A DNA stretch of 64,000 nt from a virus. Its lineage: Duplodnaviria > Heunggongvirae > Uroviricota > Caudoviricetes. The stretch lies in the IMG/VR virus record IMGVR_UViG_2778260994_000001, one strand, 5' to 3'. Of the stretch, positions 55,618 through 62,279 are shown piece after piece. Each line of letters starts with the position of its first letter. Positions within the stretch are counted from its first letter, which is position 1. Made by a program: the position numbers and the translations under genes. Below the pieces are notes generated by a model, which had not been told where the DNA came from, made no database searches, and saw only the letters and a program-made list of their open reading frames with translations.

Positions 55618-56987
55618 TAATAATCCTCTTGCCAGTCAGCACCGGCATAGTTATCAAACCGTGAGTATTGGCCGTTAAAAGCCAATCTCACCGTGCCAAT
55701 TGGGCCATTTCGTTGCTTACCGATAATTACCTCGGCAATGCCCTTCATTTCGCTATCCGGGTGATAAACTTCGTCACGATACAGAAACATGATCAGGTCT
55801 GCGTCCTGCTCAATTGCTCCTGATTCACGTAAATCTGAATTTACCGGTCGTTTGTCCGCACGCTGTTCAAGCGATCGATTAAGTTGTGACAATGCCACCA
55901 CCGGTACTTGTAATTCCTTCGCCAAAGCCTTCAGTGAGCGAGAAATCTCGGCAATTTCCAGCGTTCGGTTATCTTGCAGCTCGGGGACGCGCATAAGTTG
56001 CAGGTAGTCGATCATAATCATGCTCAAACCACCATTTTCTTTATAAACACGACGAGCGCGGGAACGAAGCTCTGTAGGTGTCAGGGCGCTTGAGTCATCA
56101 ATAAAAATATTCTGCTTGTCCAACAGAATCCCCATTGCGCCAGAAACCCGCGCCCAATCCTCGTCGTTAAGTTGCCCTGTTCGAATACGAGTCTGATCAA
56201 CGCGTGCAAGAGAAGCCAGTGAGCGCATCATCAGCTGGTGGCTCGGCATCTCAAGGCTAAAAACCAATACGGGCTTATCGTTACGGACTGCGGCATTTTC
56301 GACGAGATTCATCGCAAACGTAGTCTTCCCCATCGATGGGCGGGCGGCGACAATAATGAGATCGGACGCCTGAAGTCCTGCCGTCTTCTTATTGAGATCG
56401 GTAAATCCGGTATCAAGCCCTGTTACACCATCATGCGGTCGCTGAAACAACTCTTCTATGCGAGATACCGTTGCATCGAGAATGCTGGCGATATCTTTTG
56501 GACCACTACCGCTCTTTTGTCGTTTTTCAGCTATTTCAAAAACGCGGCGCTCGGCCATATCCAGCAATTCATTGCTGCCCCTGCCATCCTGCGCATATCC
56601 AGCTTCAGCTATTTCATTTGCGACGGAAATCATTTCACGAACAACCGCGCGTTCACGAACGATATCCGCATAAGCACAAATATTTGCCGCGCTGGGCGTG
56701 TTCTTTGACATCTCCGCAAGGTACGCAAAACCACCGGCGCGTTCTAATTTACCGTTCTGTTCAAGTGCTTCAGCAAGTGTTATCAAATCAATCGGTTTGC
56801 CATGACTTAATAACCTCTCCATCTCACTGAAAATTTCACGATGAGCACTGGTATAAAAATCATCAGCAACTATACGATCTACAACTTCATCCCAGCGGCA
56901 GTTATCAAGCATTAAGCCACCAAGTACAGCTTGTTCTGCACTAAGGGAATTTGGCATGGATTCAAGAGGGGATGCAGACATTAGCAC
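55617..56987 (-). CDS. ban: Ban, DnaB-family replicative helicase
   Basis: Very high similarity to E. coli DnaB along the length, including Walker A SMGKTT. Confidence 0.95.
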   Translation of the reverse strand: MLMSASPLESMPNSLSAEQAVLGGLMLDNCRWDEVVDRIVADDFYTSAHREIFSEMERLLSHGKPIDLITLAEALEQNGKLERAGGFAYLAEMSKNTPSAANICAYADIVRERAVVREMISVANEIAEAGYAQDGRGSNELLDMAERRVFEIAEKRQKSGSGPKDIASILDATVSRIEELFQRPHDGVTGLDTGFTDLNKKTAGLQASDLIIVAARPSMGKTTFAMNLVENAAVRNDKPVLVFSLEMPSHQLMMRSLASLARVDQTRIRTGQLNDEDWARVSGAMGILLDKQNIFIDDSSALTPTELRSRARRVYKENGGLSMIMIDYLQLMRVPELQDNRTLEIAEISRSLKALAKELQVPVVALSQLNRSLEQRADKRPVNSDLRESGAIEQDADLIMFLYRDEVYHPDSEMKGIAEVIIGKQRNGPIGTVRLAFNGQYSRFDNYAGADWQEDY

Positions 56988-57266
56988 TCCACCCAGGCGT
57001 GCTGAATGTCAGATATAATCGGCATACTCAAATCACTCCTAACGATATGAGTCATCACCAGAAAATCAGGATTAATGCGCCGGACTCTTCCCGGCTGTCA
57101 CACCAAATCGCCAGGATGGTGAGTCCCTGTATCCGCTATCCCTCCAACGGTGACTTGCACATTCCGGCTACCTGGTTTGTTGCCTGAGCTAGGGGAAAAG
57201 GTAACCCCTTTAACGTCACCAGACCGCTAACGACGCATGTGCCAGACGCCGTGTTACAACCAAATA

Positions 57267-57342
57267 TGGTGGCCCCTACCGGACTTGAACCGGTGACCGT
57301 GCGATTATGAGTCGCCAGCTCTAACCACTGAGCTAAAGGGCC
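57267..57342 (-). tRNA. tRNA with CAU anticodon (Ile2 lysidine-type, or Met)
   Basis: Cloverleaf by eye: acceptor GGCCCTT, D-arm GCTCAGTGGTTAGAGC, anticodon loop CTCATAA, T-arm GGTTCAAGTCC, 3' CCA. Confidence 0.85.
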
Positions 57343-57369
57343 GGATTACTGCCAATTTTGCTTACGCTT

Positions 57370-58197
57370 TTATTTCACCGGAACAAACGGAACAGCGGTA
57401 TTACTGGTCATATACTGCGGTAATGTACCGTTCCATTTGTTGATCGCTTCCAACTCCATAACACCGGGGTTCTGGCGCAGAGCTTCACCACGTAAACGAA
57501 TGGCATCAGCTTCGGCCTGGGCTTTTGTGCGAATAGCATCAGCCTGTCCGGCAGCTTCCGCGCGCAGCATGTTGGCCTCTGCTTCACGTTGTTTGACCTC
57601 TTGCTCGCGTTGCAGGGTTTTTTGGTTTGCCGTGACTTTGGCGTTAATACTGTCAATAACTGTTGGCGGGTATTCTGGCTTACCTACATAAGAGAGGCTC
57701 ATCACCTGAATGCCGATTGGCGTCATTTCTTCCTGAATGTCTTTAAGGGCTGCATCAAGCAATTCGGATTTGCCACCGTCGATAAATTTGTCGGTTGTCA
57801 TTTTGCTGGCTAACCGGTTCAGAGCATCTGCAACCTTCTGGCGTAGATCGGTATCAGTAATATCATCTACACCTTTGCGATAGGTCTGAAATACCGTTGT
57901 GACTTTTGCTGGATCAACCTTGTAGGCTACGCCGATGTGGTAACCAATGGTTGTTCCGTCGCTCATCTGGAAGCTGAACGGCTCATCGTATGTCTTCATT
58001 TGCTTAAAGGTCGGGAAGATATAAACTTCAGTATTCAAGCCTGTCCAGTAGCGACCAACGCCAACTACTTCACCGATACCTTTATCATCCCCCAGCTTAT
58101 TTACTTTGATCCCTACGTTACCTGGCTCTACCCGATCGCATCCGGTCAGACATAAAGAACCCAAAATAATCGCTGCACTAATCAACGTTTTTTTCAT
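57370..58197 (-). CDS. Lipoprotein with SPFH/band-7-like domain (Plp-like)
   Basis: Signal peptide with lipobox LTGC; C-terminal Ala-rich coiled coil. Confidence 0.6.
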   Translation of the reverse strand: MKKTLISAAIILGSLCLTGCDRVEPGNVGIKVNKLGDDKGIGEVVGVGRYWTGLNTEVYIFPTFKQMKTYDEPFSFQMSDGTTIGYHIGVAYKVDPAKVTTVFQTYRKGVDDITDTDLRQKVADALNRLASKMTTDKFIDGGKSELLDAALKDIQEEMTPIGIQVMSLSYVGKPEYPPTVIDSINAKVTANQKTLQREQEVKQREAEANMLRAEAAGQADAIRTKAQAEADAIRLRGEALRQNPGVMELEAINKWNGTLPQYMTSNTAVPFVPVK

Positions 58198-58414
58198 TAA
58201 TTAATTTCCTGGTTTTTTCACGAAAAAAGACTACTGCGAAAGCTGGGTAAATGAGCGCGAGAAGGACTCCCAACAATACAAGTATTGTGCTGTTAGATGA
58301 GATCATATTTGGCAAAAGCCAAACATACAGAACCAGTGACACAATCAAACAGAGGACGGCATAAATATATAACCGCACCCATAGCGTTCGACATTTGTTC
58401 GGATTGTTCTGCAT
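58178..58414 (-). CDS. Small membrane protein
   Basis: Two hydrophobic segments. Confidence 0.4.
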   Translation of the reverse strand: MQNNPNKCRTLWVRLYIYAVLCLIVSLVLYVWLLPNMISSNSTILVLLGVLLALIYPAFAVVFFREKTRKLINEKNVD

Positions 58415-59096
58415 CCTCTCACTCCATTATTTAACGAATAAAAAAGCTGCGGTGCCGGGTGCCTCCCGGTGTCCTTTGGCTGGTTATCCACCGTGGACGG
58501 GGAAACAAGGAGAAATGAATGGACTGATATAACCATTTCCCCGCGTGCGCTTAGCCGCATTCACCGCAATGGTAAGAGCACTTGGCTGGCTGGGCGGCGA
58601 TGACGCCTGTACGCATTTGTTGATCCGGTTCTGCTTCCGGCATTCGCTTAATTAGCCAAATACTCTTAACGTTGCGCTGGCGGAGAGTAATGGAATCGAA
58701 CCATCATCGCTTGCGCTATGGGACGGTTTTCAAGACCGCTTGAGCACCATGCTCCCTACTCTCCAGTGATTGTGGTGGTCGGTGCTGAACTCCGACACAG
58801 GGTTGTAGCAAGCCCCGCAAAGCGCGCACTACTGTAGTTGCGGCACATCAGCCTGTACATTCACCACAATGTTGAGAACACTGGTTGTCACGCGGCAACG
58901 CAACATTTATTCATAGATTGGGATATGACCCCGTTACGCCAATGTTCTCAACGTTGTAGTGCCGGTTACGGTTCCGGCCAGGCCTCTTCCTCAACGGGGT
59001 GTTCTCCATACGGACTACCGTTTATTGGTCGTTCCTGCGGTTTATGTTGTGAAGCCAGATGCTTATCTTCTGGTTGCTTCTAAGAGCTGCACTTCA

Positions 59097-59186
59097 TCAC
59101 AACGGTAAGGGTACTTCGTAGGGATTCGAACCCTCTGCCAAGCTCGGCGATCTCCGACGTCGCAAAATACCCTTACCTGTTGTGCT
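59097..59186 (-). ncRNA. tRNA-like remnant: T-arm and acceptor-like long stem, no anticodon arm
   Basis: GGGTTCGAATCCC T-arm enclosed by a roughly 16-bp stem; too short for a full tRNA. Confidence 0.3.
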
Positions 59187-59261
59187 GGTGCCGATTAACG
59201 GACTCGAACCGCTGACATCCTGCTTACAAGGCAGGCGCTCTACCAACTGAGCTAAACCGGC
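59186..59261 (-). tRNA. tRNA-Thr (UGU)
   Basis: Acceptor GCCGGTT, D-arm GCTCAGTTGGTAGAGC, anticodon loop CTTGTAA, T-arm GGTTCGAGTCC, CCA. Confidence 0.9.
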
Positions 59262-59263
59262 AT

Positions 59264-59339
59264 TGGCGATGGTGGATGGATTTGAACCATCGACCCGTTG
59301 ATTAACAGTCAACCGCTCTAACCGCTGAGCTACACCATC
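59264..59339 (-). tRNA. tRNA-Asn (GUU)
   Basis: Perfect 7-bp acceptor GATGGTG/CACCATC, anticodon loop CTGTTAA, T-arm GGTTCAAATCC, CCA; 2 nt from trnT. Confidence 0.9.
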
Positions 59340-60007
59340 ACTTGCCGGGTACGTCTCCGGCGAGGGCTTCCACCTCCGTATGCTTTTCGGCGCACCGCGC
59401 CCTGGCTGCAATTCGGTAACAGGGGATGCATAACCCTGGCTTCCAGCGTGATTAGCGCTTTCAGCATGACGGGATATACCCGTAAATTCGTGGAACTGTA
59501 CCCAAAGTGCTGTTAAGCACCGCTGTTACGCTGAAAAGAAGACGCAACAGGAAAGGACGCTGACCAACAGATGGCCCCTTCTCGTTCATCTGGTTAATCA
59601 CACCAGCGCCCTTACCTGTTGTGCCTCCCCGTTCCCTAATACACAGACGGGGACACTCTGCGGTCGATTTTTTGACGGGGGACGACTCATACCCCGTGGC
59701 GTCTGGCTTCTTAGGCCGCTACCATCATCAGATCATCGTTTGCATTTACTTTAATGGTCAGTTTCTAAAACGCCGCAAAGTCGCTAACCATGACGAAAAC
59801 CCTGAAAAAAACGCCCACCCGAAGATGGGCAAACTGGAAGCTCGTAACGCACTTCGGTGTTGCCACTTAGGCGTATGGTCAACCTGGCAACTCGGCGTCA
59901 TGAGGGGGAAGGAGTCACTACCCCGCCATACTTGCCGCCGCGCCTGTCGCGGCTAACAGCTAAATCGCTCTATAAATCACGATTCATTGAGGCGATATTA
60001 CACTAAT

Positions 60008-60024
60008 AAATTTATTAGAGCAAT
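60008..60024 (-). promoter_or_regulatory. C1 operator, perfect 17/17, with overlapping divergent partner (59997-60013, 15/17)
   Basis: aaatttattagagcaat; overlaps the dmt stop and precedes a 600-nt leader with tRNAs. Confidence 0.75.
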
Positions 60025-62279
60025 ATAGCCATAACGTCATGAGCAACACCACGAGTGTCTCCCTTACAAGACACAGAACGTCTGGCAAAGAGAGGTTCCA
60101 CTCTGAAGCCTCTGTCCTGATAAAGTTCTCTGACGTTTGGCGCGCCACTGTTAGTAATGAGTACCTTTGCACCTCGGCGATGAGCATCCGTCAACAGAGA
60201 CACCAGGCGTTTTTGCTCTTCAAACTTAAAGTCATGACCGGAATAGTTCGTGAACCCCTCTGTATTGGGGAGCGGTTCATACGGCGGATCGCAAAAGATG
60301 ACATCTCCTTCTCCGGCAGCTTCAATCACTGCTGCAAAATCACCGCATACAAACTCAGACCGCCCTTCCGCACCGAGGAAGGCTTCCATCTCCTGTAATG
60401 GGAAATACGGAGTTTTATACTTCCCATAACCGACATTGAACTCACCGGCCTGGTTGTAGCGCGTCAATCCGTTAAAACAATGACGGTTCAGGAACAAAAA
60501 CGCCGCTGCGCGATGTAAATCATCATAGACTTGTTTGTTAAACGCATTCCGTACTGCCAAGTATCCCTCCTGGGTGTTGTAGTCCAGGAAAAAACGATGT
60601 GCCAGAGTGATAAGTGAATGCTCCTCGCGTTGCAGAGTCTTGTAAAAGTTAATCAGGTCAGCATTCACATCATTTAGCAGATTTTCCTGGTATCCGGCAT
60701 TCATGAAGACAGCTCCGCCACCGACGAAAGGTTCAATCAGGCGCTTCCCTTCTGGCAAATAGCGAAAGATTTGTTCCAGAACACCAAATTTTCCACCGGC
60801 CCATTTGAATATGGACCGTTCGAATTCTGCCGCTGGTTTAACTTTTCGCTCTTTTGTTTCACTTCCTTCTTTCTGCCGACATACGGCCTTAGTAATCCGA
60901 TCGCCAATCCAGCGCATTACTGGTATTGCCATACTATTGCCGATCGCTTTGTAACGCGGTCCGTCAGCTGCAAGCATCGCGGCCTCTTCTTCGCTTAAAT
61001 CTGGATAGTGATTGCGAAGATATGCCAGTTCATCTGAATTAACTTTTTTACGCTTTTCCGTCGGGATCAACGTATGCCCATCAGGAAAACCTTGCAGCCT
61101 TTCACATTCGACAGGGGTAAGACGGCGGACAGCTACTTCTGCGTTTCTTACTTCATAGCAAACAGCTGTTGGATTTTTAGCCATTAGAGATGGTGAAGTA
61201 TTCTTAGTTGCAGCATGTTGTGTACCGCTCATACGCTCAGGAAAAGCCAATGTAACAAGATGCTCATGGCTTTCTTGCTCACGTGCCCGCAATGTACCAT
61301 GCCCTTCTGACCAAAAACCTGCTCCTGTGCTGCTAAAAACGGCAAGGTCAGTGGCATCTTTAAAATCTCTTGCCTTTACTGTCGATGCGGTTTCATCGTC
61401 AATATATTCCCCAAATGCCGCCATCCTGAAAGCGTTTACGACTTTCGTCGATTTCATACCGGGTGGCATGTCAGCGTGTAGGCATGGATTTAGGCTTTCG
61501 CCACTGATTGCAGCGCCATTTGCAATAATGGCGGAAGCGATTTCCTTCTTTTTTCGGCTCGGCGCAATATTCCGGCGCACGCCTTCGAACTCAAAAAGTA
61601 CCGTTGCGGGATCGAGGTCTGTTCGAGCACTTGCGACAACAAACACGCGTCGGCGTCGTTGTGCCACTCCGAAGTATTGGGCATCAAGGATTCTCCAGGC
61701 CACCTTTCGCTGCGGTCCATAAATACAACCACACTGCGGCCACTTTGGAGCATGGCAACCGGTTTTGACATCCCACCGCCAGAACGTGTTACTTTTTCGT
61801 GATTCAGGTCGATCACCAGGTTCGAATGGCGCATCTTCTCCAGCCAATCCGGCAAGGAAACATCCGAACGCGTTGTCTGCTGATGACAGGACTCCTGGGA
61901 CATTTTCCCAGACGATAACTGTCGGTTTGAGGAAGGACTCAGACCGTTTGTCGTCAATTGCATTTGCAAGCTCCACATACTTCAAAGTTAGCGCGCCGCG
62001 TTCATCATCAAGCCCACCACGTAAGCCCGCGATACTGAATGCCTGACAAGGCGTACCCCCGACGAGCACATCAGGGGCTTCAATTTCTCCGGCCTGGACT
62101 TTTTGGGCGAGTTTTGTCATGTCGCCAAGGTTCGCGACATGGGGCCAGCGGTGCGCAAGAACGGCAGATGGAAAAGGCTCGATTTCAGCAAACCACGCCG
62201 GACGCATACCCAACGGTTCCCATGAAATGCTCGCGGCTTCAATTCCACTGCAAACAGATCCATAGCACAGCTCTCTCAC
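60015..62279 (-). CDS. dmt: Dmt, fused C5-cytosine (N-terminal) and Dam-like N6-adenine (C-terminal) DNA methyltransferase
   Basis: C5 motifs [24 protein letters not shown]; Dam motifs FKWAGGK and DPPY; GTG start. Confidence 0.85.

Follow-up and report, generated by a model that had tools for sequence, protein, structure and literature searches.

We analysed a 64,000-nt stretch of phage DNA (IMG/VR record IMGVR_UViG_2778260994_000001; in the following, the window), which by its sequence is that of a P1-like phage, P1, RCS47 and relatives sharing 97% identity with window positions 58400-60100. Fold, covariation and distribution identified an element on the minus strand at 59098-59184 that consists of a long stem capped by a tRNA-elbow-like head and is termed LH-1, for long-stem hairpin (LH). 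In our best reading, LH-1 is a non-coding RNA and one of four LHs that punctuate the untranslated array of tRNAs and small RNAs (sRNAs) of the ban operon. Comparison of sequences makes it probable that LH-1 is a spacer RNA which is cut out by tRNA-processing enzymes and bears a mimic of the tRNA elbow. LHs constitute a widespread structured-RNA family that is apparently undescribed and absent from Rfam 15, and whose fold and modular evolution are well supported. The four-hairpin family, its presence in lambda and the swapping of heads go beyond what had been seen in the original prediction, which was made from the letters of the window and centred on a tRNA-like remnant next to tRNA-Thr.

The enclosing stem of LH-1 comprises 21 pairs and one bulged A, with the 5’ strand (59184-59163) reading CACAAC-A-GGUAAGGGUAUUUUG and the 3’ strand occupying 59118-59098. 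Such a stem had been predicted correctly, but its length had been underestimated at roughly 16 bp. The element folds with -42.7 kcal/mol (z = -4.8, 200 shuffles). Its head includes the canonical T-arm GGGTTCGAATCCC at 59121-59133 on the minus strand, directly 3’ of tRNA-Thr, where it had been claimed to be. The whole arm spans 59134-59120 (AGGG UUCGAAU CCCU), and its 3’ strand is directly continuous with that of the long stem, like a T-stem with an acceptor stem. The match of this 13-mer to a T-arm is not significant by itself; significance comes from the stem and the repeat and, most of all, from conservation elsewhere. Reading the sequence also agrees with the predicted D-arm-like hairpin, a putative stem loop at ~59163-59147 of 3-4 bp (GCGA/UCGC) with a 9-nt loop containing GG. 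As only 13 nt separate it from the T-arm, there is no space for an anticodon arm, as was noted originally. The head is thereby predicted to be a D-like hairpin and a canonical T-arm stacked on the stem, imitating a tRNA elbow without an anticodon arm. An interior hairpin UCGG/CCGA in the minimum free energy structure of the single sequence was rejected; it is not retained in relatives.

The 16-mer CCCTTACCTGTTGTGC, reported to lie at the edge of the element and to recur in the leader, occurs exactly twice in the window, at 59170-59185 and 59609-59624 on the plus strand, one position below the coordinates first given for each copy; the window would be expected to contain 0.36 matches when up to 3 mismatches are tolerated. 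It turned out not to be an independent repeat but a sequence that two hairpins of a four-member family have as their 5’ arm. Read on the minus strand, the first copy (GCACAACAGGUAAGGG) is the 5’ arm of LH-1 and contains CACAACA, while the second is held by the 5’ arm of LH-4, the hairpin of the ban leader (59543-59623, minus strand), which has 23-nt arms of 83% complementarity (inverted repeat I2) and folds with -43.2 kcal/mol (z = -4.7). LH-2 (UACAACGUUGAGAACAUUGG / CAGUGUUCUCAACAUUGUG; 58865-58958, minus strand; z = -4.65, inverted repeat I1) is kept in five of the five aligned P1-like phages. LH-3 (58565-58676, minus strand) begins 1-2 nt past the CCA of tRNA-Ser, and its head is a 65-nt module with 97% identity to lambda positions 44866-44930 and ~88% to rV5-like phages. 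In lambda this module follows the long-stem hairpin of the late leader, and its rV5-like counterpart is a segment after tRNA-Ser. The four hairpins have related arms and fold at z = -3.6 to -4.8, with 18-23 stem pairs in LH-2 to LH-4 compared to 21 and one bulge in LH-1. A scan of the whole window (64 kb) found no LH copies outside this array of four. The comparison with P1 and its relatives that had been proposed placed LH-1 to LH-4 at matching, fixed positions in P1, P7, D6 and Ro157c2, LH-4 at the same place of the leader in each.

The stem is conserved as an RNA structure. Among 21 distinct homologues of the stem carrying the LH-1 type of head (E1), 10 of the 21 pairs were changed on both sides, and 96.1% of cells were paired compared to 34-57% with the partner slid; none of 500 shuffles reached the observed values. 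More divergent LH members retained pairing with quite different inner sequences. On the tRNA-sense strand, G·U outnumbered A·C by 24 to 6 at three pattern-symmetric stem positions, the count being confined to positions where the search pattern permitted both equally. Moreover, all 69 of the 69 tRNAs near LHs lay on the strand of the hairpin. Covariation, G·U bias and this orientation are evidence against a strand-neutral DNA palindrome. A covarying long-stem RNA fold on the tRNA-sense strand fits the small structured RNA that had been named among the options in the original prediction. A permissive stem finder that counted G·U as pairs was discarded, as its 486 ‘arms’ were mostly chance matches.

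The common stem, CACAAC-A-GGUAAGRG.. / ..CYCUUWCC-GUUGUG, closes hairpins in lambda, P1, P7, D6 and at least 190 IMG/VR contigs of Enterobacterales phages. In lambda (L004, NC_001416) the same stem, CACAACAGGTAAGAGCATTG ... CAGTGCTCTTTCCGTTGTG, is found at ~44788-44863 directly after tR’ and encloses a different interior; the annotated lambda orf-64 overlaps the start of this hairpin. BLAST searches with the lambda copy gave matches in Klebsiella, Salmonella, Shigella and E. coli phages of several genera, which start and end at the hairpin and lie in non-coding gaps, often adjoining tRNA genes. When IMG/VR was scanned with patterns of the arms (AACAGGTAAGRGYR ... YRCYCTTWCCGTTG) and varied interior length, interiors of 30-60 nt were recovered from at least 120 contigs and those of 61-91 nt from 73, compared to 0 contigs for 4-29 nt. 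The 228 copies carried 64 unrelated head types of 33-89 nt, none below 30 nt. In species-representative genomes, all credible LH matches were from Enterobacterales. Matches in Pseudomonas, Bacillus-like and other non-enteric bacteria were rejected as indicators of host range and read as lambda contamination, being 71-nt lambda-type sequences on small or ~48-kb low-coverage contigs.

Heads are exchanged between otherwise identical surroundings. Lambda, E212 and PDP110P1 have tR’, both arms and the downstream leader in common and differ in their heads. At the site following trnT, P1, D6 and the window carry the T-arm head, and P7 and Ro157c2 an unrelated 35-nt head. This swap is accompanied by compensatory changes in the inner stem (GGGUA/UACCC vs GRGCA/UGCUC). 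We propose to define the LH family by a CAYAAC(A) ... GUURUG basal helix, a covarying stem of at least 19 bp, a head of at least 30 nt and a context in which the hairpin lies on the strand of the neighbouring tRNAs and is followed by a GUGAA-type tRNA-like unit or a tRNA. LH-1 has every one of these features.

The distribution of the E1 head, composed of the D-like hairpin and the T-arm, was determined by searching IMG/VR with GTCGGAGATCGC-N(8-38)-GGGTTCGAATCCC. It was present in 109 loci with a gap that always measured 13-16 nt and in none 17-38 nt; no full-length counterpart with an anticodon arm was found in these 109 loci with gaps of 8-38 nt permitted. Freeing the D part in the search recovered almost only the same D part, which was unchanged in 32 of 34 distinct copies. 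Of 5,426 complete E. coli genomes, 469 contained the E1 element in copies 95-100% identical, nearly all on P1-like plasmid prophages and always beside tRNA-Thr. Since E1 is fixed in the 109 loci and 469 genomes and never provides space for an anticodon arm, it represents a fixed design and not a recently decayed tRNA; the suggestion of a decayed tRNA thus does not hold as a description of its current form. E1 is more strongly conserved than its own stem, and in the homologue on contig L313 it resides on a long stem of unrelated sequence. Furthermore, other, unrelated heads share the layout of a GG-loop hairpin followed by a T-arm adjoining the 3’ strand, and a T-loop-like hairpin occurs in 29 of 149 distinct heads vs 0.47 expected from shuffles. 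These T-loops and the fixation of E1 indicate that the heads are more than neutral filler.

The boundaries of LHs are tied to those of tRNAs and tRNA-like units. On the 5’ side, an LH starts 1-2 nt past the CCA of the upstream tRNA (LH-1 after tRNA-Thr, LH-3 after tRNA-Ser); LHs elsewhere often follow the U-run of a terminator, as in lambda. On the 3’ side, GUGAAU and a small hairpin, referred to as the GUGAA-type tRNA-like unit, follow the LH in 112 of 162 distinct contexts, and in three contexts the last 2-3 nt of the LH already belong to a real tRNA-Arg or tRNA-Gly. The closing helix of the following unit (GUUGUGGUG/CACCACAAC) was detected in 173 of 195 contexts vs 60 of 195 in shuffles, and it covaries (..CUG/CAG.., ..AUG/CAU.., ..GCGGUG/CACCGC..). 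The terminal GUUGUG of the LH also forms the start of the closing or acceptor helix in the unit that comes next. In the window, reading the sequence after LH-1 suggests a small unit at 59046-59103 (minus strand) in which GUUGUG-AU-GAAG pairs with CUUCACAAC and two hairpins are enclosed; it has GUUGUG in common with the base of LH-1 and ends in CACAACA. Its isolated fold is not significant alone, and its layout is analogous to that of the units with a covarying closing helix. LH-2 is followed at 58769-58870 (minus strand) by an STnc100-type tRNA-like unit, identified by its fold. Within its closing helix (AUUGUGGUG/CACCACAAU), a hairpin on the 5’ side and a T-arm-like hairpin on the 3’ side flank a variable middle. 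The STnc100-like unit after LH-3 (58448-58568, minus strand) matches RF02076 with 37.8 bits over model positions 31-147, below the gathering score of 47, and ends in a terminator-like stem and U-run; the same match is obtained in P1, D6 and Ro157c2. In P7 and D6 the variable middles of the units after LH-2 and LH-3 are swapped and their ends retained. The array is a chain of tRNAs, long hairpins and tRNA-like units with common boundary nucleotides. With a tRNA 3’ end on one side and the following tRNA-like unit directly on the other, the location of LH-1 also suits the processing signal that had been considered for it.

The region is the leader of the ban operon, which is under C1 control, together with a tRNA array on the minus strand, and the P1 annotation gives the direction of the transcript as the window minus strand toward ban. 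The operator predicted at 60008-60024 corresponds to the bivalent C1 operator Oban (Op72a/b), annotated in P1 together with the promoter Pban; inverted repeat I3 and the P1 annotation place operator and promoter at 59991-60030. Pban would be the start of the transcript expected to carry the whole LH/tRNA array. An untranslated leader does run from this operator to trnA, P1’s name for tRNA-Asn, as was predicted, and is somewhat longer than the roughly 600 nt assumed, the distance to tRNA-Asn amounting to about 670 nt.

In the mechanism that we propose, lifting of C1 repression would lead to transcription of the array from Pban as a single precursor, in the order leader, LH-4, tRNA-Asn, tRNA-Thr, LH-1, small tRNA-like unit, LH-2, STnc100-like unit, tRNA-Ser, LH-3, STnc100-like unit, two open reading frames (ORFs), tRNA-Met(CAU) and ban. 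The enzymes maturing the flanking tRNAs would then release each LH as a discrete RNA of ~90 nt, with RNase P cutting at the downstream 5’ end and RNase E and 3’ exonucleases acting at the upstream CCA. The LH boundaries fall on tRNA 3’ ends on one side and, on the other, on the starts of tRNAs or tRNA-like units, which makes release by tRNA-maturation enzymes the simplest mechanism. The stem of 21-25 bp may render the released RNA stable and serve as a constant frame, with the head as an exchangeable payload. The head of LH-1 could be read by elbow-recognising factors, either as a processing aid or as a decoy. Transcription, excision and stability of the RNA and a binding partner of its head are what we infer from the arrangement. 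A farther-reaching version is doubtful: enterobacterial phages including lambda and P1 might share a hitherto overlooked modular RNA cassette system of a 21-25-bp stem and dozens of swappable structured heads, tRNA-elbow mimics included, with ends matching the target and the seed of GcvB. On this view, the RNAs, once excised by tRNA-processing enzymes, would serve as sponges or decoys in conflicts of phages with hosts or with one another, their targets being host sRNAs or defence nucleases directed at tRNA, and head diversity would reflect an arms race.

Several points weigh against a spacer RNA with an elbow mimic. The D-like and T-arm pairs are invariant in the homologues, partly since the search pattern fixed them, and the elbow fold is therefore without covariation support. 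RNAalifold favours another interior pairing, of UCGGA with UUCGA, that is between the two loops, which could be read equally as an extended elbow contact. Moreover, ~80% of the heads have no tRNA-like feature, so that an ‘elbow mimic’ is not the function of the whole family. A fully paired helix across the predicted RNase P site is not an ideal substrate, and the sequences counted are related and were found with patterns in which the arm sequence is fixed. Finally, the literature searched on P1, lambda and phage tRNA clusters, with P1 and lambda transcriptome papers lying outside this search, yielded neither transcript data nor a description of the hairpin.

A pure processing or insulating hairpin, meaning an RNase III site or nuclease barrier between tRNAs and sRNAs with a functionless head, would explain why stems of 21-25 bp are located exactly between functional RNAs and why stem pairing is what divergent members conserve. 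This length suffices for RNase III, and LH-1 with its 21 pairs and one bulge offers the near-continuous duplex of ~20 bp or more that such a site takes. We regard this as unlikely, however, because canonical arms with a head below 30 nt occur in 0 loci vs at least 190 with longer heads, T-loop hairpins are greatly overrepresented among the heads, E1 varies less than the stem that carries it, and the conserved ends CACAAC(A)/GUUGUG are needless for a generic RNase III site. A tRNA gene that decayed to a pseudogene after deletion of its anticodon arm would account for the canonical T-arm and for the D-like hairpin with GG in its loop, and the content of the cluster does vary in relatives, tRNA-Tyr or tRNA-Ser being present or absent. 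Yet a 13-16-nt gap in 109 of the 109 IMG/VR loci (8-38 nt permitted) with no full-length version among them, 95-100% conservation in the 469 E. coli genomes, an ‘acceptor’ that is a 21-bp stem common to hairpins with non-tRNA-like heads, and failure to obtain a tRNA match at E<=10 or with relaxed ARAGORN make this origin of the present element very improbable; the E1 head may have an ancient tRNA origin. Coding capacity can be set aside almost entirely. The P1 record AF234172 annotates plp (‘putative lipoprotein’), whose 3’ end would lie here on the opposite strand, and upl over this stretch, but the plp frame of the window has an in-frame stop (..GCF*ELHF..), the middle of the ‘gene’ is replaced by another hairpin head in P7 and Ro157c2, the ORF overlaps tRNA-Thr, and no gene is annotated there in the P7 and D6 records or in RefSeq among the E. 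coli records listed. In the window plp (58838-59215, plus strand) overlaps tRNA-Thr and LH-1, and upl another hairpin; the two seem to be spurious ORFs called over structured RNA.

An element acting at the DNA level, such as a miniature inverted-repeat transposable element (MITE) or an attC-like hairpin recombination site, would use CACAAC/GTTGTG as crossover sites or terminal repeats and the heads as cassettes. This is in keeping with the cassette-like exchange of heads and of the middles of following units between identical flanks, and with the alternation of CACAAC and GTTGTG as ‘punctuation’ along the arrays; the LH ends also resemble the attC core, the consensus of which is RYYYAAC/GTTRRRY. 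In contrast, the orientation is strict with respect to the tRNAs (69/69), G·U prevails over A·C on one strand, no target-site duplication was seen at the junctions read, the heads of 33-89 nt are non-coding and hence not gene cassettes, all four copies of the 64-kb window are confined to one transcribed array instead of being dispersed, each core is one position off the attC consensus, and homologous recombination at conserved arms accounts for the swaps. Altogether, a DNA-level role seems highly unlikely. Little probability is likewise assigned to an anti-sRNA directed at GcvB or a mimic of it, in which CACAACA(GGUAAG) of the 5’ arm would mimic a target of the R1 seed and the 3’ arm would copy the seed. 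The 3’ arm and tail of LH-1 (CTTACCGTTGTGATG; 59109-59095, minus strand) are identical to E. coli GcvB nt 58-72 (CTTACGGTTGTGATG) in 14 of 15 positions, the best match in the 1.6-kb region and one that none of 200 shuffles reached. Within the 5’ arm of LH-1 is CACAACA, which has been given as the consensus of GcvB R1 targets in connection with AgvB, a prophage anti-sRNA from the ‘moron’ region downstream of PR’ (PMC4104026). In addition, each pair of an LH and its following unit has two CACAAC per GUUGUG, so that one is always unpaired. However, a scan of duplex energy against GcvB R1 performed no better than shuffles, CACAACA of LH-1 is hidden within a highly stable stem, other members show free covariation of the inner arm, so that GcvB similarity is not a family trait, and the comparison was post hoc.

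LH-1 was further compared with known RNA families by scanning the whole window against Rfam at gathering scores and positions 56900-60100 at a relaxed E<=10. In the window and 12 related loci, only spurious matches of miRNA or plastid type fell on the hairpins. The relaxed tRNA search that had been suggested as a check was negative: cmscan at E<=10 gave no tRNA match (RF00005, gathering score of at least 29 bits) at 59097-59186, the neighbouring tRNAs scoring 73-75 bits, and ARAGORN at thresholds of 50-70% reported nothing on the sense strand of LH-1. A recent tRNA pseudogene was rejected, as no intact homologue was found among the 109 loci and copies are not degenerating. YrlA, a Y RNA-like family (RF02553), was rejected too, with no match on LH-1 at E<=10; its sole weak match (25.6 bits, gathering score 69) lies over two real tRNAs, and the LH-1 stem CACAACAGGUAAG contains no GGUCCGA-like Ro/Rsr-binding motif. 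The long stem of YrlA takes the position of the anticodon stem in a four-way junction, whereas that of LH-1 would stack on the T-arm, the acceptor position of a three-way junction. Both RNAs nevertheless combine a long stem of 5’ and 3’ ends with a T-arm/D-arm tRNA-mimic module, as described for YrlA RNAs, some of which are phage-encoded (PMC4201824).

STnc100 and PasD are prophage-encoded Hfq-dependent sRNAs of the region between Q and the lysis genes, the lambdoid late leader. RF02076 (47 bits) gave no match on 59097-59186. LHs occupy the same genomic niche, are physically adjacent to such RNAs and share with them a conserved frame and a swappable core, and the units following LHs are built like STnc100, with a 7-9-bp helix closing the unit, a hairpin on the 5’ side, a variable central part and a second hairpin on the 3’ side next to the helix. 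An LH differs in being a single 21-25-bp stem with a head instead of a cloverleaf-like unit, and in that no Hfq dependence or seed is known for it. AgvB and AsxR (RF02702, RF02703) resemble LHs in that they are located in the moron region downstream of PR’ and consist of a conserved and a variable part, but each is a primary transcript of 51-60 nt with a separate promoter and terminator, and neither had an Rfam match in 56900-60100 at E<=10. AgvB carries CACAACA to trap GcvB (PMC4104026), which in LHs is base-paired. Like ERIC and REP palindromes and attC sites, LHs are imperfect palindromes of transcribed intergenic DNA whose ends are conserved and whose centre is variable or prone to insertions. 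They differ from them in sequence, are strictly oriented, phage-restricted and clustered in tRNA/sRNA arrays, are not known to be associated with a transposase or integrase, and have short structured RNAs instead of genes as centres. A MITE- or REP-like mobile palindrome was rejected in view of heads that differ wholly between copies, the 69/69 orientation and the presence of four copies in one array; no target-site duplication is visible at the LH-1 flanks read (CAG|..|ATG). For an integron attC site, the cores GCACAAC and GTTGTGR are each one position off the consensus and the enclosed 33-89 nt are non-coding. The boxA antiterminator has a GCUCUUUAACAA-like consensus and is single-stranded. 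It was rejected as well, since only the commonest LH 3’ arm reads UGCUCUUU, LH-1 having UACCCUUA and others unrelated covarying sequences, and since the arm is paired. Non-tRNA spacers of tRNA operons are co-transcribed and released by the tRNA-processing machinery, and some are sRNA sponges; E. coli 3’ETS-leuZ and the stable RNAs C and D of phage T4 reportedly are such spacers that persist after processing. LHs have no sequence relation to these, and to our knowledge a conserved long stem with exchangeable heads across many phage families has no counterpart among tRNA spacer RNAs.

The late leader of lambda and the ban leader of P1, which belong to the best-studied genomes, hold an unannotated family of covarying RNA hairpins. 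Should LHs prove to be excised and stable, phage tRNA clusters would not only serve codon supply but also be RNA operons from which a varying repertoire of small structured RNAs is delivered during lytic growth. The constant frame and variable head provide an experimental handle and could expose RNA decoys acting against host sRNAs or tRNA-targeting immunity. In practical terms, the results favour removal of the plp and upl ORF calls and inclusion of the LHs in Rfam as a new RNA family.

The tRNA genes of the array, all on the minus strand, comprise tRNA-Asn(GUU) (59264-59339) and tRNA-Thr(UGU) (59186-59261), both supported by ARAGORN, Rfam and the P1 annotation, the CCA end of the latter one base ahead of LH-1, and tRNA-Met(CAU) (57342-57267), found by ARAGORN and Rfam. 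An unusual tRNA-Ser(UGA) at 58678-58764 was reported by ARAGORN only; Rfam scored it solely as tRNA-Sec-like (42.9 bits vs a gathering score of 47). The same gene is annotated in D6 and also present in rV5-like phages, and it resembles the ‘(8/4) tRNA-Ser found in bacteriophages’ (PMC5389517). The tRNA content of the array differs in relatives: Ro157c2 has an extra tRNA-Tyr between Asn and Thr (2456-2542), and contig L016 has the order Arg-Tyr-Thr...Ser...Met. A terminator-like hairpin and U-run lie in the leader at 59812-59834 (minus strand), ~190 nt downstream of Pban, and recall the PR’/tR’ arrangement of lambda. They are in or beside the ‘dicF-like’ annotation of P1 (~59795-59896, as offset from the P1 record); Rfam gave no DicF match at E<=10 near 59812-59834. 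Proteins of 78 and 275 aa are encoded at 57370-58414 (minus strand) between the RNA array and tRNA-Met(CAU) and are annotated in Ro157c2 as a membrane protein and a lipoprotein, respectively. In P1, P7 and D6 their site is occupied by tciA/B/C, a cassette difference among P1-like phages. The gap between tRNA-Met(CAU) and ban (57075-57268, minus strand) contains a conserved non-coding module of ~190 nt, GGCACAUGYGUCG..UAGCGGUC ... GGUAGCCGGAAUGUGCAAG ... GGUGUGACA followed by a small hairpin with a GAAGAG loop, to which Rfam has no match at 57075-57268. Enterobacter phage BUCT554 and IMG/VR contig L019 have the module too, in both cases immediately 5’ of the long hairpin, and the terminal hairpin of the module covaries.

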